Positions 23,312 through 60,595 are shown, counted from the stretch's first letter. The stretch is DNA of 64,000 bases from Spirochaetales bacterium (GCA_018399255.1 JAGYPA010000018.1:1060-65059), one strand, 5' to 3'. Notes: generated by a model from the letters alone, not told the origin. Translations and numbers: made by a program.

Positions 23312-23330
23312 TCAACACCTCTTCATTGGT

Positions 23331-26715: not shown

Positions 26716-27594
26716 TTATTTTCCCTTGATAAGTTGTTCCACTATTTCCACAAGATGCTCAGTTCCTTCGGCAATATGAACTCCCGCGGCCCGCAGAACT
26801 GCTTCCTTGTTTTCGGCAGATCCTTCTCCATCAGGTGACACTATTGCTCCGGCATGCCCCATGCTGGTATCCTTCGGGGCATTTTTCCCGGCTATGAGAG
26901 CGACAACGGGTTTCGTGACATGCTCGCTTATATAGGCAGCCGCCAGCTCCTCTTCGCCTCCGCCGATTTCCCCGATCATGACAATAATTTCCGTCTGTTC
27001 ATCCGCCTCAAAAAGCGGCAGCATATCCACAAAAGGGGACCCGGGAATCATGTCGCCGCCGACCCCGATACAGGTAGACTGGCCGATGCCTTTCTGCTGC
27101 ATCAGAAACACCGTTTCATAGGCGTTGGTCGCACTGCGGGACATCAGTCCGACAGAACCTTCGCTGAATATCCGATGGGCCATAAATCCCGCCTTCGCTT
27201 TACCCGGCGATATGATCCCGAAGGAGTTCGGCCCTATCAGCCGGCATCCTTTCTCTCTGGCCAGATGATGGAGCCTGAGCATGTCATGAACCGGAACACC
27301 TTCCGCAATGGTGATAACCAGAGGAATACCGGAAATGATGGCTTCATACGCCGCTCCGTACATGAATTTCGGGGGAACAAACAGCACCGCCGCGTTTGCC
27401 CCATGCTTCACCTTCGCCTCCATGACGGTATTATATACCGGAACGCCGTGAACTTCCGCGCCCCCTTTTCCGGGAGTTACCCCGGCAACTACCTGCGTAC
27501 CGTATATCAGCATCTGCTCGGTATGGAAGGCGCCTTCGCGACCGGTTATTCCCTGCACTATCAGCCTTGTCTCGTTATCGATCAAAAAACTCAT
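26716..27594 (-). CDS. sucD: Succinate-CoA ligase (ADP-forming) alpha subunit, divergent paralogue
   Basis: QGITGREG, GVTPGKGG, IGEIGG, phospho-His motif MGHAGA. Confidence 0.88.
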   Translation of the reverse strand: MSFLIDNETRLIVQGITGREGAFHTEQMLIYGTQVVAGVTPGKGGAEVHGVPVYNTVMEAKVKHGANAAVLFVPPKFMYGAAYEAIISGIPLVITIAEGVPVHDMLRLHHLAREKGCRLIGPNSFGIISPGKAKAGFMAHRIFSEGSVGLMSRSATNAYETVFLMQQKGIGQSTCIGVGGDMIPGSPFVDMLPLFEADEQTEIIVMIGEIGGGEEELAAAYISEHVTKPVVALIAGKNAPKDTSMGHAGAIVSPDGEGSAENKEAVLRAAGVHIAEGTEHLVEIVEQLIKGK

Positions 27595-27597
27595 ACG

Positions 27598-28740
27598 CTA
27601 TGCTCCTAACCTGTTTTCCAATATTGACACACCGTCCTTAAGCCCGGCTGCCAGCGTTACCCGATCGCTGGCGGATTCCAGTATCGCCAGCCCTTTTTCC
27701 TTATTGGTTCCCTCAAGCCGGACTACCAGCCAGATACTCTGCAGATGGCTGAGACTGCCCATAATACCATTGGCAATTTCATCGCACCGGGTGATTCCAC
27801 CGAAGATATTGAGAAAGATGGTCTCGACTTTCGGGTTCTCGGCTACAATTCTGAGAGCTTCCTTAATTCGGTCGGATGTCGCCCCGCCGCCAAGGTCCAG
27901 GGCGCAGGTTACGGCCATTCCCTGTTTTGAGATCAGGTCGATGGAGGACATGATCATTCCGGATCCATTGCTGATTACCGCTATACTGCCCTTCTCCTGT
28001 ATCGGGATATAGAGGAAATCGAAACTGCGCGCCTCGAGCACCAGGGGATTGCCGGTAATCTCGTCCCGGAAGAGTCTCACATCCTCATGCTTGAAGAGGG
28101 CGTTGTCGTCGATATCTATCTTCCCGTCAAGGGCAAGCAGTCTGCCGGCATCGGTTACCACCAGCGGGTTGATCTCGGCCAGAAGGCAGTTGTATTCGGT
28201 GAATATCCGGTACAGCTTTCCGGCTATATCCTTGAAGTCCGCCCGGTACTTCTCGTCAAGCCCGCTGGCATCCATAACATACTGCAGGGTGAAATCCTGG
28301 AGGGGTTCGTTGGGCGGCAGGTATACGGTAACCAGCTTGTCGGGATTCTCTTCGGCTATCTGATTAATATCCACGCCCCCTTCCGGGCTGAAAATCATAA
28401 CGGCCTGCTTCACCTTTCGGTCCAGCGTAATACTGAGATACATCTCCCGGGTCAGCTCAACCTTATGAGCGGCAAATACCTTTTCCACGGGAAGGTCCTT
28501 GATCTTCAGGTTGAAGAGAAAATCAGCTTTTTCTTCAAGTTCCTTCCGGTTTTCGGCAAACTGAATACCTCCCGCCTTGCCTCGTCCGCCGGTCTGCACC
28601 TGTGATTTGAGCACCATGGGATAAGGAATTCTGCCGTCCATCGCTTTCAGCTCTTCCGCACTGGATGCCACCATGCCGTTCATGCAGGGCAGATCGTATC
28701 TGCGGTAGATCTCATGAGCCTTGTATTCCAATAATTTCAT
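27598..28740 (-). CDS. sucC: Succinate-CoA ligase (ADP-forming) beta subunit, divergent paralogue
   Basis: KLLEYKA, GGRGKAGGI, EINPL, DDNALFKH, NIFGGITRCD, RLEGTN. Confidence 0.88.
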   Translation of the reverse strand: MKLLEYKAHEIYRRYDLPCMNGMVASSAEELKAMDGRIPYPMVLKSQVQTGGRGKAGGIQFAENRKELEEKADFLFNLKIKDLPVEKVFAAHKVELTREMYLSITLDRKVKQAVMIFSPEGGVDINQIAEENPDKLVTVYLPPNEPLQDFTLQYVMDASGLDEKYRADFKDIAGKLYRIFTEYNCLLAEINPLVVTDAGRLLALDGKIDIDDNALFKHEDVRLFRDEITGNPLVLEARSFDFLYIPIQEKGSIAVISNGSGMIMSSIDLISKQGMAVTCALDLGGGATSDRIKEALRIVAENPKVETIFLNIFGGITRCDEIANGIMGSLSHLQSIWLVVRLEGTNKEKGLAILESASDRVTLAAGLKDGVSILENRLGA

Positions 28741-28761
28741 CTGGTATATCCTCCCCTGTCC

Positions 28762-30135
28762 TTAGATCGTGCCGTTCCACAAATCGTCATCATCCGGCAC
28801 GGTCTGGTCTTTCTTCGGCCGGGCAATGCGGGTTATGTTGAGCAGGTGTTTGTAGTAGAAGTTTTCCGAGATGCTGTTGTTGCCCCAGGATCCGCAGCCG
28901 AGGGTGCTGGTAGGGTTGAGCCCGTTGGTGAAGCTGCCGCCGGCACTGGTAGAGCTTACCTGATTGACCACTACCCGGCTTACCGGGGCCCGCAGCCCTA
29001 CTTCCCTGATATGTTCGGGATTGTTTGAGTGCAGGGAGACGGTATGGCCCTTCCCCTCAATGTTAAGATTCTCGATTGCCGTATCGATTGCCTCCGAAAA
29101 ATCTCTGTAGGAAAACGGCGTGATAACGGGAAACATCTTCTCTTTGCGCAGCGGGCTGGTCTTGTTGGCAGAATCCTCCGGAATCACGATAACTTTTGTA
29201 TCAGCAGGCATGGGGATGCCGGATGCATCGGCTATATCCTGTACAGTCTGCCCTACCATATCCCGATTGAGCTTTCCTCCGGGAAAGAGCAGGCTGATGA
29301 GGGTCTCCCGCTCCTGCGGGTCTGATACCAGATAGCCGCCGTATGCCTGAACTTCTGCCATGGCCTCATCGTACTTATCGTCCGGAAGAATCATGGTCTG
29401 CTCACCGGCACAAATGATACCATTGTCAAATATTCTGCCGTCGATAATTTTCTGTACGGCCTCACGGATATCGACATCCCGATCGATGATTACCTGCACA
29501 TTTCCGGGACCTACCCCGAAGGAGGGCTTCCCTCCTGAATAAGCGGCTTTGACCATGCCGGGTCCTCCGGTAGCTACTACCACATCAGCTTCCTGCATCA
29601 GGGCCGTGGTCCGTTCGAGACTGCCGTCTTCGACAAACTGAACCAGATGTTCCGGTGCCCCATGGGTTTTAAGCAGCTTGTTCCACTCCTCGACCAGATA
29701 CTGCGTGCAGCCGGTTGTCCGCGGATGGGCAGCAAGGATTATCGCGTTTTTCCCCTTTATTGCGTTCATCACGTTAGCCATGGGGGTTACTATGGGATTT
29801 GTGCACGGCTGGACAGCTCCCACCACCCCCACCGGCTTCGCTATTTCGATAATTCCCGTCTCTTCATCATCAGAAATAATTCCCATCGATTTTTTACCGC
29901 GCAGGCTGGCCCACATTATTCTGGCTTTACCCTTGTTCTTGAGGGTTTTATACTCTTTTGATCCCATTCGTGATTCCCGATGGGCTCTTTCTGCCAGCAT
30001 TTCGGCATTATCGAAGACAAATCTGGCCACATCCCGCACCATAGCGTCCACGCTTTTCTGGTCGAACGGCTCAAAGAGCTCCATGGCACGCCGACCTTTT
30101 TCCACTAATGACTGTATATATGCTTTATCATCCAT
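28762..30135 (-). CDS. CoA-acylating aldehyde dehydrogenase (clostridial succinate-semialdehyde dehydrogenase/EutE type)
   Basis: PCTNP, ATGGPGMVKAAYS, GVGPGN, FDNGIICAGEQ, EKMFP, TLGCGSWGNNS. Confidence 0.9.
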   Translation of the reverse strand: MDDKAYIQSLVEKGRRAMELFEPFDQKSVDAMVRDVARFVFDNAEMLAERAHRESRMGSKEYKTLKNKGKARIMWASLRGKKSMGIISDDEETGIIEIAKPVGVVGAVQPCTNPIVTPMANVMNAIKGKNAIILAAHPRTTGCTQYLVEEWNKLLKTHGAPEHLVQFVEDGSLERTTALMQEADVVVATGGPGMVKAAYSGGKPSFGVGPGNVQVIIDRDVDIREAVQKIIDGRIFDNGIICAGEQTMILPDDKYDEAMAEVQAYGGYLVSDPQERETLISLLFPGGKLNRDMVGQTVQDIADASGIPMPADTKVIVIPEDSANKTSPLRKEKMFPVITPFSYRDFSEAIDTAIENLNIEGKGHTVSLHSNNPEHIREVGLRAPVSRVVVNQVSSTSAGGSFTNGLNPTSTLGCGSWGNNSISENFYYKHLLNITRIARPKKDQTVPDDDDLWNGTI

Positions 30136-48202: not shown

Positions 48203-49231
48203 ATGCGGATACAGGAGTGGGGAAAAGCAGTCGGGGATTCTGTGGGATCTGTCTTTTTCGGCAGCCGACAGGCTGTTGAGCAGATTCTGGCGGCAGTACT
48301 GTGCAGGGGGCATGTGCTTATCGAAGATGTGCCGGGAGTGGGCAAAACAATTCTTGCGCGGGCGGCTGCAGCCAGCCTGGGAGGGACATTTGCACGGATT
48401 CAGTGCACTCCCGACTTGATGCCAACCGATATCATCGGTGTTTCGGTCTACAATCCGGCTGACGGCAAGTTCACGTTTCGTCCGGGACCGATCGAAGCGA
48501 ACGTGGTACTGGTTGATGAGATTAACCGGGCTACCCCGCGCACTCAGTCAGCGCTGCTCGAAGCAATGGCGGAAGGCCAGATTTCAATCGACCATGAAGT
48601 CCGGAAGCTGCCGGATCCTTTTCTGGTGCTGGCCACCGAGAATCCGATCGACTTTGAGGGAACCTACCCCCTGCCGGAAGCCCAGAAAGATCGCTTTTTC
48701 CTCTCCCTGTCGCTCGGCTACCCGTCCGGAGATGCTGAAATGCTCATACTGGAAGCGCAAAATCATTCTCTTTCCCACCCTGTCGAGAATTTGACGGCAG
48801 TCTCTCTCCCTGAGGACGTTCTGGCTCTGCAAAACCAGGTGCTGGAAGTGTATGTGAGTACAGAACTGCGCCGCTATATACTCGGCCTGACAGCAGCGAC
48901 CCGTGAGAGCTCCCTCCTCAAGCTCGGGGTTTCCCCCAGAGGAAGTCTGGCGTTATTTCACGGAGCACAGGCACTTGCTGCACTCCGTGGACGGGATTTT
49001 GTTATCCCGGAGGATATCAGGGAGCTGGCTCTTCCTGTCTTTGCCAAACGCATAATCCTTATGCCGGATCAGGCCATGAAAGGCATGACTGAGGAGATTG
49101 TTATTCGCCGCTGTATGGAGCAGGTTCCCGTACCTGTCCCGGGAAAACCTCGCAATCCGGTAAACCCGCCCGAACCTGAAAACCCTGGCAACTCTGGCAG
49201 TTCTCTTAATTCCGGTAAGGTCGATGTCTAA
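48203..49231 (+). CDS. MoxR-family AAA+ ATPase
   Basis: EDVPGVGKT, RIQCTPDLMPTD, DEINRATPRTQSALLEAM, ATENP, LPEAQKDRF. Confidence 0.95.
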   Translation: MRIQEWGKAVGDSVGSVFFGSRQAVEQILAAVLCRGHVLIEDVPGVGKTILARAAAASLGGTFARIQCTPDLMPTDIIGVSVYNPADGKFTFRPGPIEANVVLVDEINRATPRTQSALLEAMAEGQISIDHEVRKLPDPFLVLATENPIDFEGTYPLPEAQKDRFFLSLSLGYPSGDAEMLILEAQNHSLSHPVENLTAVSLPEDVLALQNQVLEVYVSTELRRYILGLTAATRESSLLKLGVSPRGSLALFHGAQALAALRGRDFVIPEDIRELALPVFAKRIILMPDQAMKGMTEEIVIRRCMEQVPVPVPGKPRNPVNPPEPENPGNSGSSLNSGKVDV

Positions 49232-50510
49232 AAAAATGACCGGCGGTGTGCTGCTGGCAGTCGCAGCTCTGCTGTTCCTGCCCTTCAGAATGGGACAGGT
49301 GCTTGCATTCGCCGATCTTATTATTATGCTCTTTTCTTATGCCTGGTCGTCAGCCGCCAGGACTTCACTGACTGCAGCAAGAGAGCTGAACATAGTACGA
49401 ATTGACGCCTATCACACTGTCAGCCTCGTAACAATCCTGAAAAACAGCAGCCGCATCCCCTTTCCCGGGATAAAATATACCGATTCCGCTCCGGATCTTT
49501 TTTTCAGCACGCCGCCGACGGCATTGCTGCATATTCCGGGCAAACGGGAGATCACGGTCAGCAGTCGGCTGCAGGGGTATCGACGGGGAGTCTACCAGGC
49601 AGGACCGATGGAACTGTCAGGCAGCGATCCGCTGGGATTGTTTCCCTGGAAAAAAAAGCTGCCGAATACGCAAGTTTCGGTAGTAATCTACCCCGAGATT
49701 ATTCCCCTCGCCAAACCCTTCAGCATTCAGCGGGGAAGGATAGGCGGAAGCTCACGTACCACTGATAAAGCTTATGAGGATGTAAGCCGCTATCTCGGGA
49801 TGCGGGACTACCAACCGGGAGATCCTTTCAGGATTATCAACTGGAAAGCTTCGGCTCGCCGTGGAAAACTCCAGACTATGGATTACGAGCGGACCATCCA
49901 TGCTCCCGCCTGGGTAATATTGGATACTGCCCGCGAAGCATACCCGGAACGGCATCGGGAAGCATGGATTGAACGGGCAATTTCCGCTGTCGCCTCAATC
50001 TGCACAGCCTATGGAGCCGTGGGGCAGCCGATCGGTCTTCTCTGCAGCGGAACGACTCCATCAGCAGAAATCGCGAATTATTATGAAATACTCCCTGAAA
50101 GCGATAAAGCACCACCCCCATCCCCTCTCCTGCTGCAGCCGGGAGCCGGAAGCGGCCAGATCGAGGCTATTCTTTCTCTTCTTGCTTCCCTCTCTCCTGC
50201 AAAAGCTTACCGGAAGCTGCTGGAGAGTTTTATGCTGCTCCGGGCTGAGACATCATTGCATATCCCGGTCTCACCTGCGGGTGAACGGATCTTCTATATC
50301 GGACCGACGCTGTTTAATGAAGAGCGCACACGGATGATATTCCTCCGTAAACGAGGAGCTGCTGTTGATTATCACCCGGCCGCCTCCCGTTTTGAAGATG
50401 ATACCGAACTCAGAGCCAGCGGTGTTGCCATTTCCCCGCTGATAGAATACGGGCCGGATCTTTTCCGCGCGCAGCTGCTGCCGGCAAGCAGAAAGGAAGC
50501 TGTTCTATGA
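49224..50510 (+). CDS. DUF58 domain protein
   Basis: RRGVY...DPLGLF, RDYQPGDPFRIINWKASAR; follows MoxR. Confidence 0.88.
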   Translation: MSKKMTGGVLLAVAALLFLPFRMGQVLAFADLIIMLFSYAWSSAARTSLTAARELNIVRIDAYHTVSLVTILKNSSRIPFPGIKYTDSAPDLFFSTPPTALLHIPGKREITVSSRLQGYRRGVYQAGPMELSGSDPLGLFPWKKKLPNTQVSVVIYPEIIPLAKPFSIQRGRIGGSSRTTDKAYEDVSRYLGMRDYQPGDPFRIINWKASARRGKLQTMDYERTIHAPAWVILDTAREAYPERHREAWIERAISAVASICTAYGAVGQPIGLLCSGTTPSAEIANYYEILPESDKAPPPSPLLLQPGAGSGQIEAILSLLASLSPAKAYRKLLESFMLLRAETSLHIPVSPAGERIFYIGPTLFNEERTRMIFLRKRGAAVDYHPAASRFEDDTELRASGVAISPLIEYGPDLFRAQLLPASRKEAVL

Positions 50511-52165
50511 CGAAGCACCCACGAAAAGAACAGGAACCAACTGTCAGCCTCATACCTGAAACCGATGCCCCCCTGAAGGCAGCCGCTATGATTTTTCCAT
50601 TTCTCACCACTGTTTTCGCCCTGATCATTATCGATAGTGCGGGAAACGGGTCATTTTTTCCTGCTCTCGAAATCGGTATCGGAATCTCGGCCGTCATCGC
50701 TATTCTCGAGCGAGTTTCCAGCAGCTGGATGCAGGCATCCCGTGAAAGCACGGCTATGGAAATACGAAGGCAGATCCTGGGTTTGGCGGCCGTTCTCGGT
50801 ATCAGTCTGCTATCAGCCCCACCCCGTTTAACCTCATTGACCCCTTTGACCCCATTAACCCCTGGTCTGGCACTTTTCTCCCTCTATGCTGTTCAGTGGC
50901 TTATCACCAGCTCTATGGGCAAACTGGGGAAAACCCTGCCGATACTGCGTCAGTACGCAGCCCGCGGTCAGGGAGCAGCCCTTGTCGGGCACATGCGGGA
51001 GATAAGCGACGAGTCAGGAGAATTTTTCCGTGACTGCCGACGATCAACTGTTTTTTCCGGACTCCTTCTGCTGGTTCAGTTTTCAGCCGCTGCGGCAGTG
51101 CAGTTTTCGGGGTATCAAACGCCGATAATCCTTTCTCTCCTGCTCGGCCTGTCCATGATCTCCTTTTTTATCTTGAGAATGCTGATTTTACTGCTAGCTG
51201 ACAGACATCACCTGCTGCAGGAGGGAATAAGGCTGGGCAGCAGGAATGACAGTCTCCGTCCGCTTATTGGTTCGGGAATAATTGCTGCGGGGTGTTTTCT
51301 GGCCCTGATTATTGCCTCTGAAGATGCTGTAATTCCTCCAGATGAACTTTTGGCCTGGCTGGCGCGCCTGCTGAGCAGCATCCGATGGAAACAGTCAGTT
51401 GTTATGCCGCCGGAGGTGCTCTCCTCACCGGTATTTACACCATCGCCTGCTGCCGGACTGCTCGGTGAACTTTCTGCCGGAAAACCGGTAATCCGTTTGG
51501 ACCTCCTCCTGAGGTATTTTGGAATCGGTGCGGCGGCCGTGCTTTTTCTGATAATCATGAAGCCGTTTCTTACGGCAACGTTCTACCGTTCAATACGCCA
51601 ATATTCCCTGTTCGCCCGTCTATTGGCCGTCTGCAGACGCGTTCAGGGACTCCTTGCCCGCATAGTCTCCGAACTTTTCCAGCTCAAAAAAGCTTTTAAT
51701 ACGCCATCGCAAAACGGGAAGCTGGAGGATCCTTACAAGATTCAGCTTTCAGCTCTGCTCCAGCAGCAGAAAAGCTCCGCAAAAAAACGACGCCAGATGA
51801 GTGCAGTGATCAGAATGTTTGTCAGGCTTATCGAGGCGGCTCGAAGTGCCGGTATAGCCTGCAGCCCGTCAGATGCGCCAGGTGACTTCCTTACCAGAAT
51901 AGAAAAAGCCGTCGCGAACGATGACAGAACAGCACTGACTGCCGCTGCCGTACGCAGGGTAAAGAATACGCTGAATATTCTTTTATATTCCAGCCGGCAG
52001 CTGTCTCCGCAGGAGATGAAGAGTCTGCTCAAAGACTTGCAAAGCCTCTCCAGATTTGCTGCAGGCAGCTGTGCCAAGGGTTCATCTGCAGGCTCTACAG
52101 CAGGTTCACCTGCCGGTTCATCTGCTGAGCATGAAAAATCCCCTCGAGAACAAGATCCGGAATAA
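50507..52165 (+). CDS. Multi-TM membrane protein of the MoxR/DUF58 operon (DUF4129-like C-terminus)
   Basis: Start overlaps the DUF58 stop. Several TM helices and a soluble helical C-terminal region. Confidence 0.65.
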   Translation: MTKHPRKEQEPTVSLIPETDAPLKAAAMIFPFLTTVFALIIIDSAGNGSFFPALEIGIGISAVIAILERVSSSWMQASRESTAMEIRRQILGLAAVLGISLLSAPPRLTSLTPLTPLTPGLALFSLYAVQWLITSSMGKLGKTLPILRQYAARGQGAALVGHMREISDESGEFFRDCRRSTVFSGLLLLVQFSAAAAVQFSGYQTPIILSLLLGLSMISFFILRMLILLLADRHHLLQEGIRLGSRNDSLRPLIGSGIIAAGCFLALIIASEDAVIPPDELLAWLARLLSSIRWKQSVVMPPEVLSSPVFTPSPAAGLLGELSAGKPVIRLDLLLRYFGIGAAAVLFLIIMKPFLTATFYRSIRQYSLFARLLAVCRRVQGLLARIVSELFQLKKAFNTPSQNGKLEDPYKIQLSALLQQQKSSAKKRRQMSAVIRMFVRLIEAARSAGIACSPSDAPGDFLTRIEKAVANDDRTALTAAAVRRVKNTLNILLYSSRQLSPQEMKSLLKDLQSLSRFAAGSCAKGSSAGSTAGSPAGSSAEHEKSPREQDPE

Positions 52166-52889
52166 TCTCATCAAAGAGCCCCGCATCCCAGAAAAGAGAA
52201 GAAAATCCGCCCGTAGCCAGCACTTTAGGCGGCTTATCGCGGAAATTCTCGCGGGTCAGCCGCGATACTATCTCTCGGGCAGCCCCCAGATTACTGTAGT
52301 ACAATCCCGACTGGATACTCTCTTCAGTGGTCTGCCCGCACACCCTGGCCGGCTGAACAATTTCCACCTTGGGAAGCTTGGCTGTGTGCTCTTCCAGGGC
52401 CTGCATGGACAAACGCAGCCCGGGCAGAATAACTCCGCCAAGATAGACTTTTCCCGCTGAAACCACATCGTAGGTAGTTGCAGTGCCGAAATCGGCTATG
52501 ATGAGATTCTCACCCGGATAGCGCCTTGTCCCGCCGATGGCGTTGGCAATCCGGTCGGCCCCTACCGACTGTGGGTTCTTATAGGCAATCTTGAGCCCGG
52601 TTTTCACCCCGCTCCTGAGCACAAACGGTTCCTGCCTGAAATATCGCCGACAGCTGTTAATCATGGCATGATTCAGGTCGGGAACAACTGATCCATAGGC
52701 TATAGCCGATACCGCGTCGGGATCGAACCCGTTTTCCCGTATGGCACTGCGTAAAAAGAGCCCCATCTCATCGGAAGATACCATCTGATCGGAGACCTTC
52801 CTGAACTGCAGCACCAGTTCGCCTTCCCGGTAGAGTCCGCAGAAAATTTGCGAATTTCCGGCATCAATACATAATACCATAGTGTTCAT
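52095..52889 (-). CDS. coaX: Type III pantothenate kinase
   Basis: IDAGNS, SVVP, VGADRIAN, DFGTATT, GGVILPG, ATGG. Confidence 0.93.
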   Translation of the reverse strand: MNTMVLCIDAGNSQIFCGLYREGELVLQFRKVSDQMVSSDEMGLFLRSAIRENGFDPDAVSAIAYGSVVPDLNHAMINSCRRYFRQEPFVLRSGVKTGLKIAYKNPQSVGADRIANAIGGTRRYPGENLIIADFGTATTYDVVSAGKVYLGGVILPGLRLSMQALEEHTAKLPKVEIVQPARVCGQTTEESIQSGLYYSNLGAAREIVSRLTRENFRDKPPKVLATGGFSSLFWDAGLFDEIIPDLVLEGIFHAQQMNRQVNLL

Positions 52890-53638
52890 CACTCCTGCCG
52901 GTGCATTTCTTCTGCCAGCCGGGCTGTATAGCGTTCGAGATGCCGGTAGAGCATCTCCTTTGTCGTAACCTCTTCCATGAGCGTTCCGTTCCCCAGGTAA
53001 ATTGAAGCCTCATGCACCCCTTCTTCCCCGATCCGTCCGAGATCGTTGTGGACCAGCAGATCGCAGTCAACCTCGTCCAGAAGCTGGTCGACAGCCTGTT
53101 TCTGCTCCGCAGTATTCGGGGTGTTTGTCAGCTTGAAGCCCACAAGAATCAGCTTCCGGTAACCTGCATACCCCCGGATGGCTGCAATAATCTTGTGGTT
53201 GCGTTTAAAGTTCACACTGAGAAATTCAGGGGCTGATGAAATTTTACCGTCATCTCCCGGAATCAGATCTGCCCCATCGGGTATGCTGATGGATATCGGG
53301 CTGTAATCGCTAACCGCAGCAAGATGCACAACCGTCTCTATTGTATCATCAGCCAGCAGCAGCTGATGAATTTCACGATCCAGATCACGGAAGGTTCTGT
53401 AGCGGACAGTCCGGATGGAGCCATGCGAGGAACCGCGACCCCCAATACGGCTGCTTTTCGCCAGGGCGGTCATATCAGGCAGGGCAGCATGATACCCGTG
53501 CAGCAGCAGCACATCATGCCCTCCGGCAGCAAGGTAAGCAGCCAGTCCGGCACCAGTCTTTCCGGTTGAGAAATTGGTAATATAGCGCACGCCGTCGAGA
53601 GGCTCTTCGGTTCCTCCGGAGGTTATGAGATATTTCAT
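52889..53638 (-). CDS. coaB: Phosphopantothenate-cysteine ligase (stand-alone CoaB)
   Basis: ITSGGTEEPLDGVRYITNFSTGKTG, AAVSDY, GFKL. Confidence 0.88.
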   Translation of the reverse strand: MKYLITSGGTEEPLDGVRYITNFSTGKTGAGLAAYLAAGGHDVLLLHGYHAALPDMTALAKSSRIGGRGSSHGSIRTVRYRTFRDLDREIHQLLLADDTIETVVHLAAVSDYSPISISIPDGADLIPGDDGKISSAPEFLSVNFKRNHKIIAAIRGYAGYRKLILVGFKLTNTPNTAEQKQAVDQLLDEVDCDLLVHNDLGRIGEEGVHEASIYLGNGTLMEEVTTKEMLYRHLERYTARLAEEMHRQE

Positions 53639-54207
53639 GTCTCTGCCCGAAAATCCTCGATTAAGGCGAGCATAGTCTCGGGTTCAGCCAGACGGCCCGA
53701 ACCTACCTCTCCGCAGGCCAGAAGTCCTGCATCAGGATCGATGATCCGGGCACCCCAGCCTGCTAGAATATCAAGGTTCTCCCGGGTTGCCGGGTGCTCG
53801 AGCATGCTGCTGTTCATTGCCGGAGCAATCCAGAAAGGAACTTTGAAGTTGTTGGCAAGAAAGACAGCGCTTATGAGGTCTTCGGCCAGTCCCATCCTGA
53901 GGCGGGCCAGGGTTGCAGCCGATGCCGGATAAATGAGAATGAGATCGGCCCAGCGGGCTAATTCAATATGGGCGATTTCCGAAGAGTCGGCAAACATATC
54001 GGTCTGCAGCATACGCCGGGTTATCCCCTCCAATGCGGCAGGGCCGATAAACTGGAGGGCAGATTTCGTAGCTGCACACTGAACAAGATAATCTTTCTTC
54101 ACCAGGGCGGAGGCCAGGCTGGCCGCTTTATAGGCTGATATGGAGCCGGTTACCCCCAGCAGAATTCTCGTTTTCGGTTTATAGGGGTCCTTGTGTTCGT
54201 TTGGCAT
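53635..54207 (-). CDS. coaC: Phosphopantothenoylcysteine decarboxylase (stand-alone CoaC)
   Basis: GVTGSISAYK, HIELARWAD, APAMN, LACGEVGSGRL. Confidence 0.9.
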   Translation of the reverse strand: MPNEHKDPYKPKTRILLGVTGSISAYKAASLASALVKKDYLVQCAATKSALQFIGPAALEGITRRMLQTDMFADSSEIAHIELARWADLILIYPASAATLARLRMGLAEDLISAVFLANNFKVPFWIAPAMNSSMLEHPATRENLDILAGWGARIIDPDAGLLACGEVGSGRLAEPETMLALIEDFRAET

Positions 54208-54970
54208 TGTCTATTAACCTCACTTTTCCAAGATATGCAGCTGCCAGAAGGCGGCTTCCTAGTTCAGGATCGTTAAAGATTTCCACATACTCGACTCTGA
54301 AACCGGCGGTCTCGAGCTCTTCTTTTATCGCCTCGATCGTACGGTCTGAACTCAGCAGCTGGTGCAGCAGGGGAGCTTTCTCAAGTTCATCAGAGGTCAG
54401 ACGCCCATTTCGTGAACTGAGGGCAAGCCCTGAGGGTTCCCGCACCGTGGGACAGGATACAATCTCGGTATCAATCAGAAACGCTTCAGCCATTCTCTTC
54501 ACCAGGACATACTGCTGCCAATCCTTTTCTCCCATATACATCCGGCTGGCATGACTGATAAGAAGCAGCTTAAGGACAATGGTCAAAACCCCCTCAAAAT
54601 GGCCGGGACGATATTTTCCGCAATATTCTCTCGAGAGAGCTTTTTCGGTTACCGCATAGGTGTAGTTGTCCGGATACATGCTCTCGGCCTGCGGGGCAAA
54701 GAGCAGATCGGTACCGACTTTCTCGAGCAGGCTGATATCTTCGTCCAGCGTTACGGGATACCGGGTGAGATCCTCCCGGTTGTCAAACTGTGAAGGGTTA
54801 ACGAAGATGCTGGCTGCGGCTATCTGATTCTCCTCTCGCGCTCTCTGAAGCAGACTCCGATGTCCGGCATGGAGGGCTCCCATGGTCGGTACAATACCGA
54901 TGCTGTCTCCCTTCCGGCGATAATCCCGCAGTATCTGCTGCCATTTCTGCGGCTCTCTTACAATATCCAT
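54179..54970 (-). CDS. panC: Pantoate-beta-alanine ligase
   Basis: VPTMGALHAGH, FVNPSQF, RPGHFEGV, GEKDWQQ, GLALSSRN, VRLIDN. Confidence 0.96.
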   Translation of the reverse strand: MDIVREPQKWQQILRDYRRKGDSIGIVPTMGALHAGHRSLLQRAREENQIAAASIFVNPSQFDNREDLTRYPVTLDEDISLLEKVGTDLLFAPQAESMYPDNYTYAVTEKALSREYCGKYRPGHFEGVLTIVLKLLLISHASRMYMGEKDWQQYVLVKRMAEAFLIDTEIVSCPTVREPSGLALSSRNGRLTSDELEKAPLLHQLLSSDRTIEAIKEELETAGFRVEYVEIFNDPELGSRLLAAAYLGKVRLIDNAKRTQGPL

Positions 54971-55878
54971 CAGGTATAGCTCTCCGCTTCATCGGGAAAT
55001 GCCCTGGTAAGAATGTCCTTGTGAAAATTCTCCAAAGCTTCATGCATGAGGGCAGCCCCATCCAGGTATTTTCTGACAAATCTGGGAGTTTTGCCGGGAG
55101 TAAGTCCCAGCAAGTCGTGCAGCACAAGAACCTGGCCGTCGACCCCGCTGCCGGCACCGATTCCTATTACAGGAACCGTCAGCTTTTCTGCCATCTCACT
55201 TCCCAGCTCTTCAGGGACGCATTCCAGAACAATTGCAAAGCATCCGGCCTCTTCAAGGCGCCGGGCATCTTCAATCAGTTTTTCGCGGGCATCGCCTGCC
55301 CTTCCCTGTACCCGGTATCCTCCAAAGCTGTTGACTGACTGGGGGGTGAGACCAAGATGGCCCATAACCGGCACGCCTGACCTGACAAGCAGCTCAATGG
55401 CAGCAAGACTGCCCCCGTAACCTTCGACAGCTCCCTCAAGCTTGACGGCATTGGCTCCTGCCTGCATCAGGGTCCGTGCATGGGATACAATACTATCGAT
55501 ACTTCCCACCTCGGTCATGAACGGCATATCGCCGATGACAAAGGCCTGCGGAGCTCCGCGCCGCACGGCGGCTATATGAAGCGCCATCATGTCCACGGTC
55601 GCCGGAAGAGTTGATGCATAGCCGTGCATCACCATAGCGCCGCTGTCCCCGACAAGTATGCAGTCAATATCGGTTTCGGCAATAATCGAGGCGCTCCAAT
55701 AGTCATAGCAGGTGACCATGGAAATCGGGATATTCTTCTGTTTTCTGCTGATAAATTCCGGGGCCGTTATCCGGCTGCGATGACGGGCAGCCGGGGCGCC
55801 GGAGGCTGGAAGGTTGGAAACTGGCGAACCGGAAGATTCCTGTTTTGCATCCCGGTTCTGTAATTCGGATGAATTCAT
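54970..55878 (-). CDS. panB: 3-methyl-2-oxobutanoate hydroxymethyltransferase
   Basis: ILVGDS, GDMPF, AVKLEG, GHLGLTPQ, IGIGAG, DGQVLV. Confidence 0.96.
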   Translation of the reverse strand: MNSSELQNRDAKQESSGSPVSNLPASGAPAARHRSRITAPEFISRKQKNIPISMVTCYDYWSASIIAETDIDCILVGDSGAMVMHGYASTLPATVDMMALHIAAVRRGAPQAFVIGDMPFMTEVGSIDSIVSHARTLMQAGANAVKLEGAVEGYGGSLAAIELLVRSGVPVMGHLGLTPQSVNSFGGYRVQGRAGDAREKLIEDARRLEEAGCFAIVLECVPEELGSEMAEKLTVPVIGIGAGSGVDGQVLVLHDLLGLTPGKTPRFVRKYLDGAALMHEALENFHKDILTRAFPDEAESYT

Positions 55879-56061: not shown

Positions 56062-56181
56062 TTGTATCAGTACAATTGTCTGACAAATTATATGGAATTT
56101 CAGTTTTTTATCGATATTCCGGTTGATATTTTGTAGATATATGCTATTGTATCACTGGAATTTCTTATTGTTTCAATACAA
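56062..56181. promoter_or_regulatory. Three putative GntR operators
   Basis: TTGTATCAGTACAA (56062), TTGTATCACTGGAA (56147), TTGTTTCAATACAA (56168). Confidence 0.6.
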
Positions 56182-56203
56182 TGAATACAATCAGGAGGAA
56201 TCT

Positions 56204-57214
56204 GTGGCGGAAACAAAGCCTGCTTCTTCAGCTGTCCCTGCTGCAGACATTCTTGACAGATCTGCCGCTGACCCTCTTTACCTGCAGCTTAAGGCACACT
56301 TTGCTGAGCGCATTCTGCAGGGAGACTACACCGGAAGCAAGCTGCCGACCGTCAGGGATGCCGCTTCTGCCTACGGGGTGAGCATGAATACCGTTTTGAG
56401 GGCCTACGAAGGACTCCGGCAGGACGGCTATATTTCCGGTACCGTCGGCAGGGGAACGTTCGTAACCACAACCAAGGAAGAGCTGCACCGGCACAACCGC
56501 GGCTATCAGCTCCAGACATTCATCCGGCATGCCCTCGAAGAAGCCCTCTCCTTCGGTTACACTCTGGACGATTTTGCCCGGGAGGTGGAAAGCTTCATAG
56601 CACGGAAACGCGAAAACCTGGCTCAGATTCAGCTGATTTTTATTGAATGCAATATTGAGCAGCTCCGCTATTTCACCGAACACCTGGATCTCGACCCGTC
56701 CATCCACCGCATTCCCCTGCTTCTAGCCGATCTGCAGGAGGGCATTCGCAGCGGCGACAAGATCGTCCTGGATACTGTTAAAAAAAGCGATCTCATTCTG
56801 ACCAGTTTCTACCATATGCGTGAAGTGGCGGAACTGATACACCGTTGGGAAAAACCGCTGATAGGCATAAATCTGGAACCGGAAATCAGCACTATTGTGG
56901 AAATTGCAAAAATACCGACAGATTCAACTATCGGAATCGTCACTTCCAGTGAAAAGTTCCTGAATATCATTAAGGAGGAGCTGCACCGGCTGAATCTCAA
57001 TTTTTCCTCCATTCTGGAGACAACCTCCCGTGATGAAGAGACCATCATGCATCTGGTATCCCGCTGCAGCACCATCCTGGTCTCTCCGAAGCAGAAGCGC
57101 ATTGTCAGCCAATATGTCGGAAAAGAGCAGAAAATCATAGAATTCATTTTTACGCCCGACCGCACTTCCATCAACAATATCAAAGTCGCTGTGATGGAAC
57201 TCCATGCCAGGTAG
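56204..57214 (+). CDS. GntR-family regulator (YtrA-like wHTH) with long C-terminal effector region
   Basis: GTG start after AGGAGG. PLYLQL...KLPTVRD...VSMNTVLRAY...GRGTFV. Confidence 0.88.
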   Translation: MAETKPASSAVPAADILDRSAADPLYLQLKAHFAERILQGDYTGSKLPTVRDAASAYGVSMNTVLRAYEGLRQDGYISGTVGRGTFVTTTKEELHRHNRGYQLQTFIRHALEEALSFGYTLDDFAREVESFIARKRENLAQIQLIFIECNIEQLRYFTEHLDLDPSIHRIPLLLADLQEGIRSGDKIVLDTVKKSDLILTSFYHMREVAELIHRWEKPLIGINLEPEISTIVEIAKIPTDSTIGIVTSSEKFLNIIKEELHRLNLNFSSILETTSRDEETIMHLVSRCSTILVSPKQKRIVSQYVGKEQKIIEFIFTPDRTSINNIKVAVMELHAR

Positions 57215-57279
57215 CTTTATAGTCGGCTCCAGCACCAGGCCCGGAACCGGCGAGTGCAGTCTATTGCCAGGAGGCATTC

Positions 57280-58530
57280 ATGACCAGAAAAATCACAGAA
57301 CCCACATTTAACCAATTTTTTGCCCCGAGGTATAAAATCCCCGTTCCCCGCCTGCTTACCGGGGATTCCGGCTTATCTGAAATTAAACGATCGCTGGAAG
57401 CCTGGGGCGGTGAAGGTCTGGTAAAACCTGATGTCCTGGCAGGAAAGCGCGGAAAAGCCGGCTCAATAAGAGCAGTAGGCAGTGCTCAGGCTGCCGTAAA
57501 GGAACTTAACCGTACTGCTGGAATGGAAGTAAACGGCATCATTCCCCGCGGGGCTTATCTTGTGGAGAAAATACCGGCCAAGTGGGAAGTCTTTACCGCG
57601 ATCACCTACAGCACGGCTCACCTCGGACCGGTTCTCACTCTCTCCCTTGAAGGCGGAATTGATATCGAGCAAGTCAGCAGGAACAAGCAAGTCTCCATCC
57701 CCATTGATATTTTTGAGGGGCTGGATGCCTACCAGGCCAGTGAAGCCCTGCTGAACCTCGGCTACCCTCAAAAACTGATAAGCTCCTTCTCCCGGGTCCT
57801 CATCGCCTTCTGGGATATGTTCATATCCACCGGCATGGAAACTGCGGAAATCAACCCCTGGCGGATAACTCCCGACGGAAAACCCTATGCCTGTGATTTC
57901 AAGGGAAGCTTTGACGAATCAAACTATAAATGCCGCATCCCGGGCATCACCTATCCGGAGTATCCTTCAAATACGACCGATTTCGAGGATGAGATGCAGG
58001 AATGGGATGCCGCATCGCATCAGGGTCAAGCCCATGTATCCGATCTTGGCGGCAGCAAAATTCTGCCCCTGCTCTTTGGGGGCGGCGCTTCCACGATCAT
58101 AACGGAAATACTTCACGCATCTGGAGGGGATCCCGTTTTCCTCTCAGATTTCGGCGGCAATCCACCGTATGAGCGCATGTACGGTACAGCAAAACGCTGT
58201 TTCGACTATCATCTCGGGCATGCGGAGCTGCTGCTGATTCTCGGCGGCAAAGCTAATAATACCTTTGTCGACGTTACCTTTCAGGCCATTGCCGATGCCC
58301 TTTCCGATTACTGCCGTGAACACGGACCGCTTACCATTCCGGTGGTTATCGGCCGCGGCGGACCCAAGCTGGTGAAAGGATTTCTCGTGATGAGGCAGAC
58401 GCTTGAACAGCTTCACCTCCCCTACGTAATATTCGGACCTGATACACCGGTAACCATGGCAGCAGAATATGCTGCCCGGCTGGTTAACGCGCTGCCGAAA
58501 AAACAGGAGGAACAGGAACATGTCAGCTGA
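57280..58530 (+). CDS. aclB: ATP-citrate lyase beta-like subunit (ATP-grasp plus substrate-binding domain), divergent
   Basis: VKPDVLAGKRGKAG, EGGIDIE, EINP, GGGAS, DFGGNP, GGKANNT, RGGP, FGPDT match the AclB motif order. Confidence 0.75.
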   Translation: MTRKITEPTFNQFFAPRYKIPVPRLLTGDSGLSEIKRSLEAWGGEGLVKPDVLAGKRGKAGSIRAVGSAQAAVKELNRTAGMEVNGIIPRGAYLVEKIPAKWEVFTAITYSTAHLGPVLTLSLEGGIDIEQVSRNKQVSIPIDIFEGLDAYQASEALLNLGYPQKLISSFSRVLIAFWDMFISTGMETAEINPWRITPDGKPYACDFKGSFDESNYKCRIPGITYPEYPSNTTDFEDEMQEWDAASHQGQAHVSDLGGSKILPLLFGGGASTIITEILHASGGDPVFLSDFGGNPPYERMYGTAKRCFDYHLGHAELLLILGGKANNTFVDVTFQAIADALSDYCREHGPLTIPVVIGRGGPKLVKGFLVMRQTLEQLHLPYVIFGPDTPVTMAAEYAARLVNALPKKQEEQEHVS

Positions 58531-60595
58531 AACACTTTCAAAACTTCTAAAAAAAGGCGATCGGATTGCAGTATCCAATATAACGGGGAGAGAAGCTTCT
58601 CAGGTTACTGCAGTAAGCCAGAAGTACTGCGGCAATATAGTGGGAGGCTGGGCCCTGGGAAAAGGCGGCCAGGTGGTGGACACTCCCAAAGGTCCGGTGC
58701 AGGTATTTGCCAATTTTGAGGAACTGCTCAGACTGGTCCCGAGTAAAAAGCACCCGAACAAGATCCTGATTTACTCGCCGCCTGAGGCGGTATACGGCGA
58801 AGTGAAGGAGATCCTGAAATACGGGACCGGCACGGTGGAAACGTTGTTCATTGTCACTGAGCATGTAGCGGTAGAGGTTACGGCAAAACTGCATCGTCTA
58901 TGCCGCCAGGCTGGTATTGATGTGGCAGGCTGCAATACTTTGGGAATGATAAACACTCATGACCATGTCCGTATCGGAGCTGTAGGCGGCGACACCCCGG
59001 ATGAATCGTTCAAGCCCGGATCGGTAACCATCATCTCCAATTCGGGAAATATGGTTAACACCATAGCCGGATACCTCGCTTCGGTAGGGCTCAGGGTCTC
59101 ATTCGGTATCTCTACGGGCAAGGACCGTCTCATCCTTACCCCCCTCAAGCGCCTTCTCGAGTTGGCCGAGCATGATGAGCATACCCGGATCATCGTCCTC
59201 TATATTGAGCCCGGCGGCACCTACGAGGCTGAAGCAGTGGCATGGATGAAAGATCATGCTTTTTCTAAACCCGTTATCGTTTATGTCGGGGGAGAACTTG
59301 CTGAAAAAGCTGATATAACTCTCGGCCATGCCGGGGCGGTCATTGAGGGAAAGGCCAGTTCAGCCAGCGGGAAAAAGCAGCTGTTCGATGACTATTTTGG
59401 ATCCGCTCCCTTTAATCAAGCCATGACTGCTCAGCAGTACCAGCAGAAACCGGAAGCTTTGGCAAAAGGCCTGCGGGTAACCATCCTGCATCATATCCCG
59501 GCAGCAGCCGATCTTATATATCAGGTTCTGGGCTATACCCGTGATACTACCCGCTTCCAGCCCCTTACGCTCAATCCCTGGTTTGTCAATCTGCACAATC
59601 TCGGCAAAGCACTGCCGGCTGAACTGGCTTTGGCCGCAGGAACAATTCCCGAACCGCACCTGAGTCAATATAAGCTGCTGGTAAAAGGGTTTTCCGATTC
59701 CATGATTCGCCAGCCTATGAGAAACGCATCCCATGCCAGCTCGAATGACGGGGCAGTTCCCCGAGTTTATGGTATCTCATTAGCCGATCTGATGGAAAAA
59801 CGGTCGTTTGTCGCCAGCCTGGTGCTCTACTGGACCGGGAGACTTCCGAATGACATATTTGAAGAGCATCTTGTCGAAATGACCTTGATCGCCTCGCTTA
59901 CCAATGGCCCGGGCACCATCTCCGCCCAGGGTTCCAAACTCTCAGCTTCTGCCGGAAACCGTCCCCACACGGCCATGATCGGTACTCTGGCTTCGATAGG
60001 CGAGGTTCATGGCGGCAATGGATCCAAGGCTGCAGCCTACCTGCTCGATATTTTCTCGGATTCCGGGTTGAAGGATCCCTACGATCCCGAATTTACCACC
60101 TATCCCTTGGCAAAAAAAGCCGCGGCGGCTTTCAGGAGGAAAAAGGAGGCGGCAAAGGCCATCGGCCTTGAATACGAAAGAATACCCTGCCTGGGTCATC
60201 CGGTATTCACTGGTGAGGAGATCAACTACGATCCGCGGGAACGGGTAATTTCGGAATTTATCAGAAAAAGTAATCGCCGCCAGGTATTTCTGGATTTTTA
60301 CCTGCAGCTGGCGGCAGCGCTCAAGGCTAACGGGGCTGCTCCCCGGGTTATGGCGGTTAATGTCGATGCCGCCCTGGCCTGCATCTGGCTGGGTATTTGC
60401 TGGAAATCGCTGATTGACAAGGAGATTACAACGCAGCGGGTTATAGATCTCCCTTTTGCCGCCTTTGCTCTTGGAAGGGCCGCCGGAGGGGCTGGGGAGT
60501 TTTTTGATCATCAGGATTTCGGGACAGCCATGGATATGCGAATTCCGGTTAATGAATGCCGTTCGCTCACCCGCCCGGCAAAGCTTTCTCCCTGA
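58520..60595 (+). CDS. aclA: ATP-citrate lyase alpha-like subunit (SucD-like CoA-binding/phospho-His domain fused to a citrate-synthase-fold lyase), divergent
   Basis: PGSVTIISNSGNM, IEPGG, LGHAGA; lyase part NGPGTISA, HGGNG, IPCLGHP, NVD. Confidence 0.75.
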   Translation: MSAETLSKLLKKGDRIAVSNITGREASQVTAVSQKYCGNIVGGWALGKGGQVVDTPKGPVQVFANFEELLRLVPSKKHPNKILIYSPPEAVYGEVKEILKYGTGTVETLFIVTEHVAVEVTAKLHRLCRQAGIDVAGCNTLGMINTHDHVRIGAVGGDTPDESFKPGSVTIISNSGNMVNTIAGYLASVGLRVSFGISTGKDRLILTPLKRLLELAEHDEHTRIIVLYIEPGGTYEAEAVAWMKDHAFSKPVIVYVGGELAEKADITLGHAGAVIEGKASSASGKKQLFDDYFGSAPFNQAMTAQQYQQKPEALAKGLRVTILHHIPAAADLIYQVLGYTRDTTRFQPLTLNPWFVNLHNLGKALPAELALAAGTIPEPHLSQYKLLVKGFSDSMIRQPMRNASHASSNDGAVPRVYGISLADLMEKRSFVASLVLYWTGRLPNDIFEEHLVEMTLIASLTNGPGTISAQGSKLSASAGNRPHTAMIGTLASIGEVHGGNGSKAAAYLLDIFSDSGLKDPYDPEFTTYPLAKKAAAAFRRKKEAAKAIGLEYERIPCLGHPVFTGEEINYDPRERVISEFIRKSNRRQVFLDFYLQLAAALKANGAAPRVMAVNVDAALACIWLGICWKSLIDKEITTQRVIDLPFAAFALGRAAGGAGEFFDHQDFGTAMDMRIPVNECRSLTRPAKLSP

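Follow-up and report, generated by a model that had tools for sequence, protein, structure and literature searches.

A GntR-type regulator gene, followed by the genes of the beta and alpha subunits of an enzyme related to ATP-citrate lyase (ACL), was characterized in a 64,000-nucleotide (nt) stretch of DNA from a Spirochaetales bacterium (GCA_018399255.1 JAGYPA010000018.1:1060-65059), hereafter the window. With moderate confidence, the gene pair is assigned to a heteromeric ACL of the lineage in which citryl-CoA synthetase (CCS) is fused to citryl-CoA lyase (CCL), and would serve regulated citrate cleavage in a heterotroph. Such cleavage is the simplest reading of the physiological role, and we infer the substrate, the chemistry, the direction and the control of these genes by the regulator from homology and gene context. 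Open reading frames (ORFs) and their translations gave three intact genes on the plus strand (Table 1), with a gap of 65 nt between regulator and beta and an overlap of 11 nt between beta and alpha. The initial annotation had described a GntR gene followed by overlapping AclB-like and AclA-like genes, with which the gene calls, the Pfam matches and the overlap agree, and all the motifs that it quoted were found in the translations (TNGPGTISA, HGGNG, GHP, NVD and GHAG in alpha; DFGGNP and GGKANNT in beta). The alpha ORF is open from 58469; its start was set at the ATG at 58520 because the family consensus of the homologues begins there, with the Met of MSAETLSKLL = MSAETLSKLLKKGDR.

The beta subunit combines an ATP-grasp domain (ATP-grasp_2, PF08442; 74.5 bits, cut-off 29.5) with an ACL-type citrate-binding domain (Citrate_bind, PF16114; 55.5 bits, cut-off 26.8), as the beta chain of heteromeric ACL (AclAB, EC 2.3.3.8) does. 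Its closest solved structure is the large subunit of CCS from Hydrogenobacter thermophilus (6hxq_B, E 9.3e-48, residues 13-415), and it is 51-66% identical to 31 relatives. Both loops listed in Table 1 are unchanged in 32 of 32 beta sequences, and GGKANNT was also aligned with aiANfT of the Methanothrix soehngenii ACL.

The alpha subunit comprises a half resembling CcsB and the alpha subunit of succinyl-CoA synthetase (SCS) (residues ~1-300), a linker of ~90 amino acids (aa) and a half resembling CCL and citrate synthase (residues ~405-691). As in the alpha chain of ACL, an SCS-alpha-like half with a phospho-His loop is fused to a citrate-synthase-homology module. Succ_CoA_lig (45.1 bits), Citrate_synt (42.3 bits) and Ligase_CoA (25.8 bits) were all matched above their Pfam cut-offs. 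The nearest solved relative of the N-terminal half is the CCS chain 6hxq_A (E 2e-32); the profile of the C-terminal half is nearest to the CCL 6hxp (1.1e-14), the lyase modules of ACL coming next. An AlphaFold2 model of alpha (pLDDT 74) gave ~700-720 aligned columns with the ACLs of human, Methanothrix (M. concilii) and Chlorobium limicola (Foldseek E ~1e-21).

Relatives were collected with a word-indexed protein search (825 proteins at E ≤ 0.001 among 7996 scored), and motifs were counted on the best 120 of the 825, which are 58-96% identical and nearly all full length. In these, xNGPGT occurs in 120/120, HGGNG in 119/120, GHAG in 118/120 and C(L/I)GHPV in 116/120. His270, Glu114, His560 and Asp616, together with the DPR and GR motifs, are unchanged in the family alignments, and the Arg of MDxR is also kept; the phospho-His (GHAG) and the NVD Asp had been noted as retained in the initial annotation, and both proved invariant. 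Within the citrate synthase fold, the positions that bind oxaloacetate/citrate (HGG, GH, DPR, NVD and GR) are retained. With respect to the canonical residues of ACL (the His of DHGP, the His-Arg of GHR and the Asp of NVD), Asn462 and Pro561 differ and His560 and Asp616 are kept. The idea of a rewired active site is overstated. In alpha, His to Asn and Arg to Pro are real and family-wide, but for beta and for HGGNG the label finds no support: since the CCS large subunit has DIGGNPP and GGTANNT, the beta loops, like HGGNG, which is aligned with AHGGA of CCL, are, judging from the alignments, ordinary CCS/CCL-type states. Only the changes His to Asn (TNGPGT) and Arg to Pro (GHP) are distinctive in the lyase module. 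As Asn is present in all of the 120 best relatives, Asn462 is most readily taken as a clade character under selection and not as decay.

Table 1. Position and basis of the features described; positions are counted from the first nucleotide of the window.
Feature	Position	Strand	Basis
Promoter-like TTGATA-16-TATTGT (TG-extended), upstream of regulator	56123..56150	+	Consensus scan, positional only
Palindrome ATTGT-N6-ACAAT (also TATTG-N3-CAATA), candidate operator, ~25-40 nt before regulator start	56166..56182		Script
GntR-family regulator, 336 aa	56204..57214	+	GTG start, AGGAGG 7 nt 5'
Beta subunit, 416 aa, ATP-grasp and citrate-binding domain, CcsA-like	57280..58530	+	Pfam, PDB match
Beta loop DFGGNPP, residues 290-296	58147..58167	+	Aligns with DIGGNPP of CCS 6hxq_B
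Beta loop GGKANNT, residues 322-328, equivalent of the ACLY citrate loop GGIANFT	58243..58263	+	Aligns with GGTANNT of CCS
Alpha subunit, 691 aa	58520..60595	+	Pfam, PDB matches, alignments
Glu114 of TEHV, aligned with AEG of type I ACL	58859..58861	+	Invariant in family; alignment to P0209
His270 in LGHAGA, phospho-His of the CoA-ligase half	59327..59329	+	Invariant; aligned with GHAGA of CCS/SCS
Asn462 in TNGPGT, at the DHG(P) His position of CCL, ACL and citrate synthase	59903..59905	+	Profile and pairwise alignments
His560-Pro561 (GHP); CCL and ACL have GHR	60197..60202	+	His and Pro invariant or nearly so in family alignments
Asp616 in VNVDAA, catalytic Asp position of the citrate synthase fold	60365..60367	+	Invariant; aligned with LNVDG of CCL/ACL

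By motif alignment, the two changed positions of the clade would be the equivalents of H900 and R976 of human ACLY, the numbering of which we partly presume; Glu114 is likewise taken by us to be the equivalent of E599. In the available text of Wei et al. (2023), cleavage by the human enzyme is argued for the ligase half, with E599, and the citrate-synthase-homology module is argued to be allosteric, a non-productive CoA being bound by H900, R976 and R1065 (PMC10115795).

To assess the distribution of the gene pair, contigs were scanned with one genome per species, which yielded at least 599 matching stretches and at least 588 relatives, of which 80 loci were kept for analysis; the relatives in genome contigs were recovered by an alignment-based scan, a scan with a single protein giving none. 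At least 588 species genomes carry a member of the clade, and the 80 kept are all metagenome-assembled genomes (MAGs). Identity across phyla is 54-74% (53-74% for the 80 kept), with a mean column identity of 72%, and clustering at 50% reduced the entire family to one representative. The hosts of the 80 loci belong to Spirochaetota, Fibrobacterota, Desulfomonilia and other Thermodesulfobacteriota, Planctomycetota, Kiritimatiellae, Verrucomicrobiota, Lentisphaerota, Nitrospiraceae bins, Anaerolineales and Elusimicrobia; Phycisphaerae and Victivallales are also among the host lineages of the clade. These are mostly fermentative or heterotrophic lineages.

The next relatives are proteins of ~900 aa from Geobacter metallireducens, Variovorax, Desulfosarcina and Desulfobacter. 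In an IQ-TREE tree of 26 rows based on the N-terminal domain only, the family was recovered as a clade (98/99) whose sister is the ~900-aa clade (99/99), and the CCS small-subunit representative branched next (85/91). Type I ACL, represented by P0209 and P0250 and anchored by the similarity of P0209 to 6hxi_B (563 bits), formed a separate, long-branched clade (100/99). The phylogeny that had been proposed as a check on the initial annotation therefore sets the family apart from the biochemically characterized type I ACLs. Within the clade, gene tree and host taxonomy conflict, a delta-proteobacterial bin branching with Victivallis and a Nitrospiraceae bin with Elusimicrobia (L058/L069 and L034/L050). 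Because host taxa are scrambled in this way, the tree suggests repeated lateral transfer of the gene pair, in a subset together with the regulator. A 555-aa fusion (P0256), in which an SCS-alpha-like CoA-ligase half is joined to an enoyl-CoA hydratase domain in place of the citrate-synthase module, was also encountered.

The genome to which the window belongs is a MAG of 4.40 Mb in 246 contigs, 90.5% complete and with 3.66% contamination. Its type I citrate synthase scores 600.9 bits against a cut-off of 505 and is encoded with NADP-dependent isocitrate dehydrogenase (NADP-IDH) and aconitase in a gltA-icd-acn cluster on contig C68; the MAG has a single Citrate_bind protein. Canonical citrate synthase (E ≤ 1e-30) is also common in other carriers. 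In a 301-genome sample of the phylum, 12 genomes besides this one had the ~690-aa family (11 of the 17 genomes of one family); citrate synthase was detected in 9 of the 13 carriers, compared with 219 of the 301 overall, and in four of five carrier genomes of other phyla. A replacement of citrate synthase by the ACL-like enzyme was rejected on this co-occurrence, in which canonical citrate synthases were counted.

As for the reductive tricarboxylic acid (rTCA) cycle, the fumarate reductase/succinate dehydrogenase flavoprotein (PF02910) was not found in the MAG, which at 90.5% completeness does not prove its absence; an autotrophic rTCA cycle is not recognizable in this genome. The search for rTCA genes that had been suggested as a check gave a divided result, since three 2-oxoacid:ferredoxin oxidoreductase-type (POR_N) genes, of unassigned specificity, and two SCS, one of them in the window, are present. 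A regulator-led, ACL-like enzyme of two subunits in an organism without a recognizable rTCA cycle is nevertheless what the data describe. A role in an autotrophic rTCA cycle is therefore not proposed for the enzyme, nor would it be the sole citrate synthase of the cell.

Two further genes of the MAG were recorded. One is a further citrate synthase, which belongs to the eukaryote-like (Si)-type and is truncated at the contig end (G000:C103:6-872, L082; NF007128, 426 bits, cut-off 344); it may be a paralogue or bin contamination. The other is a stand-alone 280-aa gene of the His-type CCL family (G000:C166, L083:1405-2247, minus strand; NF004868, 197.8 bits, cut-off 193). Its neighbours are a short-chain dehydrogenase/reductase and a sugar ABC permease, and no gene for a CCS partner lies close by.

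Gene neighbourhoods were compared over the 80 loci. Some genes of high-GC loci were overlooked or put in the wrong cluster by the ORF caller, alpha being uncalled in 7 of 80 and antisense ORFs entering the "GntR" cluster, and the counts are therefore lower bounds. Wherever both were called (54 sources), beta and alpha were always adjoining. In at least 16 of the 80 loci, spread over several phyla, the pair has aconitase and/or NADP-IDH as a neighbour (aconitate hydratase, 910 bits to NF005558, cut-off 612; NADP-IDH, 660 and 629 bits, above cut-offs). A transporter of the 2HCT citrate:cation symporter family (461 bits, below the cut-off of 549) with a CitA-like kinase and a response regulator occurs in at least two loci, and glutamate dehydrogenase in at least two. 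Pyrroline-5-carboxylate (P5C) dehydrogenase (778 bits) accompanies DAO/FeS oxidoreductases in a few; glutamate dehydrogenase, P5C dehydrogenase and a DAO/FeS oxidoreductase flank the pair in L009, L012 and L071. Enzymes of methylcitrate, homocitrate, isopropylmalate or citramalate metabolism were not found among the annotated neighbour clusters of the 80 loci. On account of the aconitase, IDH, symporter and glutamate dehydrogenase neighbours, the CCS-type citrate loops and the kept oxaloacetate-binding positions, citrate is the best-supported substrate and is favoured over an analogue.

The regulator matched the Pfam family GntR at ~41 bits (41.1-41.3), above the cut-off. Of the effector domains of classical GntR subfamilies (FadR/FCD, HutC/UTRA, MocR, YtrA), no FCD, UTRA or aminotransferase domain was found at E ≤ 10, nor was any other credible Pfam family. 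Its AlphaFold2 model (pLDDT 82.9) consists of an N-terminal winged helix and a two-lobed alpha/beta C-terminal domain of ~200 aa (residues ~138-336). The winged helix-turn-helix matches GntR structures at Z 10-12. For the C-terminal domain, LacI/periplasmic-binding-protein (PBP)-type, PrpR-N, PTS-IIB and receiver domains were tied at Z ~8, near the noise level of the tool, and Foldseek gave a TM-score of ~0.3 to Asp/Glu racemase-like and PBP folds. A GntR domain joined to a PBP-like sensor is the AraR-type architecture. The order of a GntR winged helix and a two-lobed alpha/beta domain resembling the sensors of LacI, CcpA and Cra is the same here; the sensor domain of our regulator differs in having no matching sequence family and only tied fold matches.

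Orthologues of the regulator, 35-50% identical and with many invariant C-terminal motifs, lie directly 5' of the enzyme genes in at least ten loci besides the window, among 46 with room for one, the count being restricted to plus-strand members of 290-375 aa. Their hosts are Spirochaetota, Desulfomonilia, Thermodesulfobacteriota and Anaerohalosphaeraceae. In L005, L016 and L044 the regulator is situated between divergent idh-acn and enzyme genes; in L012 only the aconitase side of this arrangement is seen, the contig ending there. In the window, the palindrome listed in Table 1 sits between the promoter-like site and the start codon of the regulator. Palindromes of other sequence were found 36-59 nt before the starts of the homologous regulators in L003, L005, L006, L011, L012 and L044, and no palindrome sequence common to all regulator loci was found. 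Those of L003, L005, L006 and L012, 36-48 nt before the start, are related to one another (TCTTAAT-N2-ATTAAGA, TGTCTTAAGACA and TGTCTTA-N6-TAAGACA). As candidate operators, these upstream palindromes are suggestive only. Scans for promoters and terminators over 55.7-60.8 kb were no richer than shuffled sequence (five promoter-like sites, 4.9 expected).

In the mechanism proposed, the GntR-type regulator with its PBP-like sensor domain would control beta and alpha as one unit. The ATP-grasp domain of beta would phosphorylate His270 of alpha, from which the phosphoryl group would pass to citrate held in the citrate-binding domain of beta, and attack by CoA would give citryl-CoA. The C-terminal module of alpha, with Asp616 and His560 kept and Asn462 in place of the enolate-stabilizing His, would then cleave the citryl-CoA, with acetyl-CoA and oxaloacetate as products. 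The overall reaction is expected to be close to equilibrium and reversible, and citrate could be supplied by uptake or from 2-oxoglutarate through IDH and aconitase.

Several observations weigh against this assignment. All NCBIfam matches (SCS subunits, CCL) are far under their curated cut-offs, and no enzyme assay of any clade member was found in the literature searched. The locus of the window itself has no citrate-related neighbours, its flanks being pantothenate/CoA biosynthesis and an amino-acid ABC transporter; the neighbourhood annotation is based on one representative per cluster of the ORFs of the 80 loci; and, the MAG being in 246 contigs with 3.66% contamination, a different organism could be the source of the contigs with citrate synthase. 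Asn462 replaces a His that belongs to the catalytic set of citrate synthase, its motif position being presumably that of H264 of the Escherichia coli enzyme. H264 is listed in the catalytic set of E. coli citrate synthase (PMC13147460), and Pro561 stands at the Arg whose human ACLY mutant R976E has background-level activity, according to the available text of PMC10115795.

The same chemistry could also run in reverse, as an ATP-conserving citrate synthase (acetyl-CoA + oxaloacetate + ADP + Pi -> citrate + CoA + ATP) that feeds aconitase, IDH and glutamate synthesis and is induced by the regulator at energy limitation; this is possible, although unlikely. The aconitase, NADP-IDH and glutamate dehydrogenase neighbours would suit such an oxidative branch equally, and canonical citrate synthase was not found in 4 of the 13 carriers of the phylum sample and one of the five elsewhere. 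Against it, most carriers keep canonical citrate synthase, at the background rate. For Desulfobacter postgatei, an ATP-harvesting ACL working in reverse has been reported (Moller 1987, cited in PMC8085960), and Desulfobacter proteins belong to the ~900-aa sister clade with the same Asn signature; the D. postgatei activity, however, is not tied to the ~900-aa protein, and the reverse direction is given as +9 kJ/mol (PMC8085960). The initial annotation had instead suggested that an ATP-dependent CoA-ligase/lyase might act on an analogue of citrate (citramalate, malate, methylcitrate or homocitrate); on this reading, the changes His to Asn and Arg to Pro would retune its lyase pocket. These two active-site positions do differ from every characterized CCL, ACL and citrate synthase aligned, the curated family scores are all sub-threshold, and the regulator sensor weakly resembles, among its tied matches, the N-terminal domain of PrpR (2pju, Z 8.5), a protein that responds to 2-methylcitrate. 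The beta citrate-site loops are nevertheless those of the citrate-specific CCS, the binding positions of the citrate synthase fold are retained and the neighbours are aconitate hydratase, NADP-IDH and, in two loci, a citrate-type 2HCT transporter in place of analogue-specific enzymes, which makes the analogue quite improbable.

Least probable by far is the citrate-cleaving step of a complete rTCA cycle for autotrophic CO2 fixation. ACL and CCS/CCL are treated as markers of that cycle, and the lineage was so read in the available text of Thiel et al. 2017 (PMC5459899); the MAG also has the three 2-oxoacid:ferredoxin oxidoreductase-type genes and two SCS mentioned above. That the PF02910 flavoprotein was not found in the 90.5%-complete MAG speaks against it, as do the sugar ABC transporters, inositol dehydrogenase and 2-oxoacid dehydrogenase E2/E3 encoded in the window and the mostly fermentative or heterotrophic hosts of the clade (Spirochaetota, Kiritimatiellae, Phycisphaerae, Victivallales and Fibrobacterota). 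More speculatively, heteromeric citrate cleavage could be the last step of a heterotrophic "reductive branch" that has not been described so far, a proposal that we regard as doubtful. In it, 2-oxoglutarate derived from glutamate or proline would undergo reductive carboxylation by NADP-IDH, isomerization by aconitase and cleavage by the ACL to acetyl-CoA and oxaloacetate, the regulator would switch the branch against the coexisting citrate synthase, and the Asn/Pro pair would adapt the lyase module in a way common to the ~900-aa clade. If true, the reductive branch would ferment amino acids in redox balance, with a net gain of ATP by way of acetate; the glutamate dehydrogenase, P5C dehydrogenase and DAO/FeS oxidoreductase neighbours of some loci and the amino-acid ABC transporters beside the pair in the window and in L001 are compatible with it.

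ACL and CCS/CCL genes routinely serve as markers of the autotrophic rTCA cycle in metagenome surveys. Since this clade, in its at least 588 species genomes, has largely fermentative or heterotrophic hosts in which an ordinary citrate synthase is usually present, its use as a carbon-fixation marker would mislead. It is also unusually conserved across phyla (54-74% identity) and carries Asn where all characterized relatives have a catalytic His, which bears on the debate over a catalytic or an allosteric role of the citrate-synthase-homology module in ACL (PMC10115795). The ligand of the conserved, uncharacterized regulator would reveal the physiological role.

On the 5' side, the regulator gene is flanked by the divergent panB, panC, coaC, coaB and coaX, a compact operon (52095-55878, minus strand) with coaB and coaC as separate genes; operon and regulator gene diverge across a common intergenic region of 325 nt. 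Genes of unknown function containing DUF58 and DUF4129 (49224-52165, plus strand) lie upstream of the coaX end of that operon. On the 3' side, a polar-amino-acid ABC transporter is convergent to alpha, and an amino-acid ABC transporter flanks the pair in the closest relative, L001, as well. That no rTCA genes lie around the pair holds for these immediate flanks, and not for the window as a whole, where sucCD is found 28 kb off. These sucD-sucC genes (366.6 and 379.1 bits, above cut-offs) are directly 3' of an acylating aldehyde dehydrogenase (28765-30135), the group spanning 26719-30135 on the minus strand. A gene resembling LarA-family nickel-pincer 2-hydroxyacid (malate) racemases (19795-21063, minus strand; NF052593, 395 bits, below the cut-off of 500) adjoins the 2-oxoacid dehydrogenase complex E2/E3 (21866-24707) and a sigma-54 activator (16759-18102). 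Metatranscriptome contigs from two libraries, 93-97% alike, cover parts of all three genes of the locus. The contigs mapped are all 88-99% alike, that is, from relatives, so that coverage gaps carry no meaning, and they are a weak hint of expression, DNA carry-over being possible.

Compared with known systems, the gene pair is, on its layout and tree position, a further member of a fused ccsB-ccl ACL lineage already in print. Thiel et al. 2017 (PMC5459899) describe, from uncultured Planctomycetes, Phycisphaerae and Spirochaetes, "heterodimeric ACL" genes in which ccsB and ccl are fused, place them between the CCS-CCL of Aquificae/Leptospirillum and type II ACL, and read them as rTCA genes on phylogeny only. 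Both descriptions share a two-gene layout in which CCL is joined to the small subunit of CCS, the same host taxa and an agreeing tree position, the likeness being by published description. Our family includes P0050 (Spirochaetes bacterium DG_61) and L059 (Phycisphaerae bacterium SM23_30), with names styled like that of the example in PMC5459899, Planctomycetes bacterium DG_20. The regulator, the Asn/Pro substitutions and the coexistence with citrate synthase are the differences, being unmentioned in the available text of that paper.

With type I ACL (Chlorobium limicola 6hxj, Methanothrix 6hxi/6znw and human ACLY), the pair has in common the subunit and domain order, the fold, the phospho-His loop, the Glu of (T/A)E(H/G), the His of GH and the Asp of NVD; it differs in an identity of only ~24% and in the type I motifs DHGP, RFGGA, GHR and EYSG/GGIANFT. 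The sister clade of ~900-aa proteins (Geobacter metallireducens ABB30551.1, Variovorax, Desulfosarcina "SucD2" and Desulfobacter) is 36-38% identical to the family and agrees with it in (T/S)NGPG (118/120), HGGNG (118/120), HPVF and VN(V/I)DA and in having CCS as its best solved relative, but has its own insertion of ~200 aa before the lyase module. Our unconfirmed guess is that this clade may be the "type II ACL" (Hugler and Sievert 2011) and/or the Desulfobacter ACL. Its members P0125, P0130, P0361 and P0370 come from cultured Geobacter metallireducens, Variovorax, Desulfosarcina variabilis and Desulfobacter, and their annotations read only "CoA-binding protein" or "citrate/2-methylcitrate synthase". 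Among solved structures, the pair is closest to the CCS (6hxq) and CCL (6hxp) of H. thermophilus, with which it has the beta citrate-site loops and the HGG motif in common and whose CcsA and CcsB its subunits most resemble. In H. thermophilus, the lyase forms a protein of its own and has the canonical His (DHG) and GHR, whereas here the lyase is a module of alpha (residues ~405-691), fused through the ~90-aa linker and carrying Asn and GHP.

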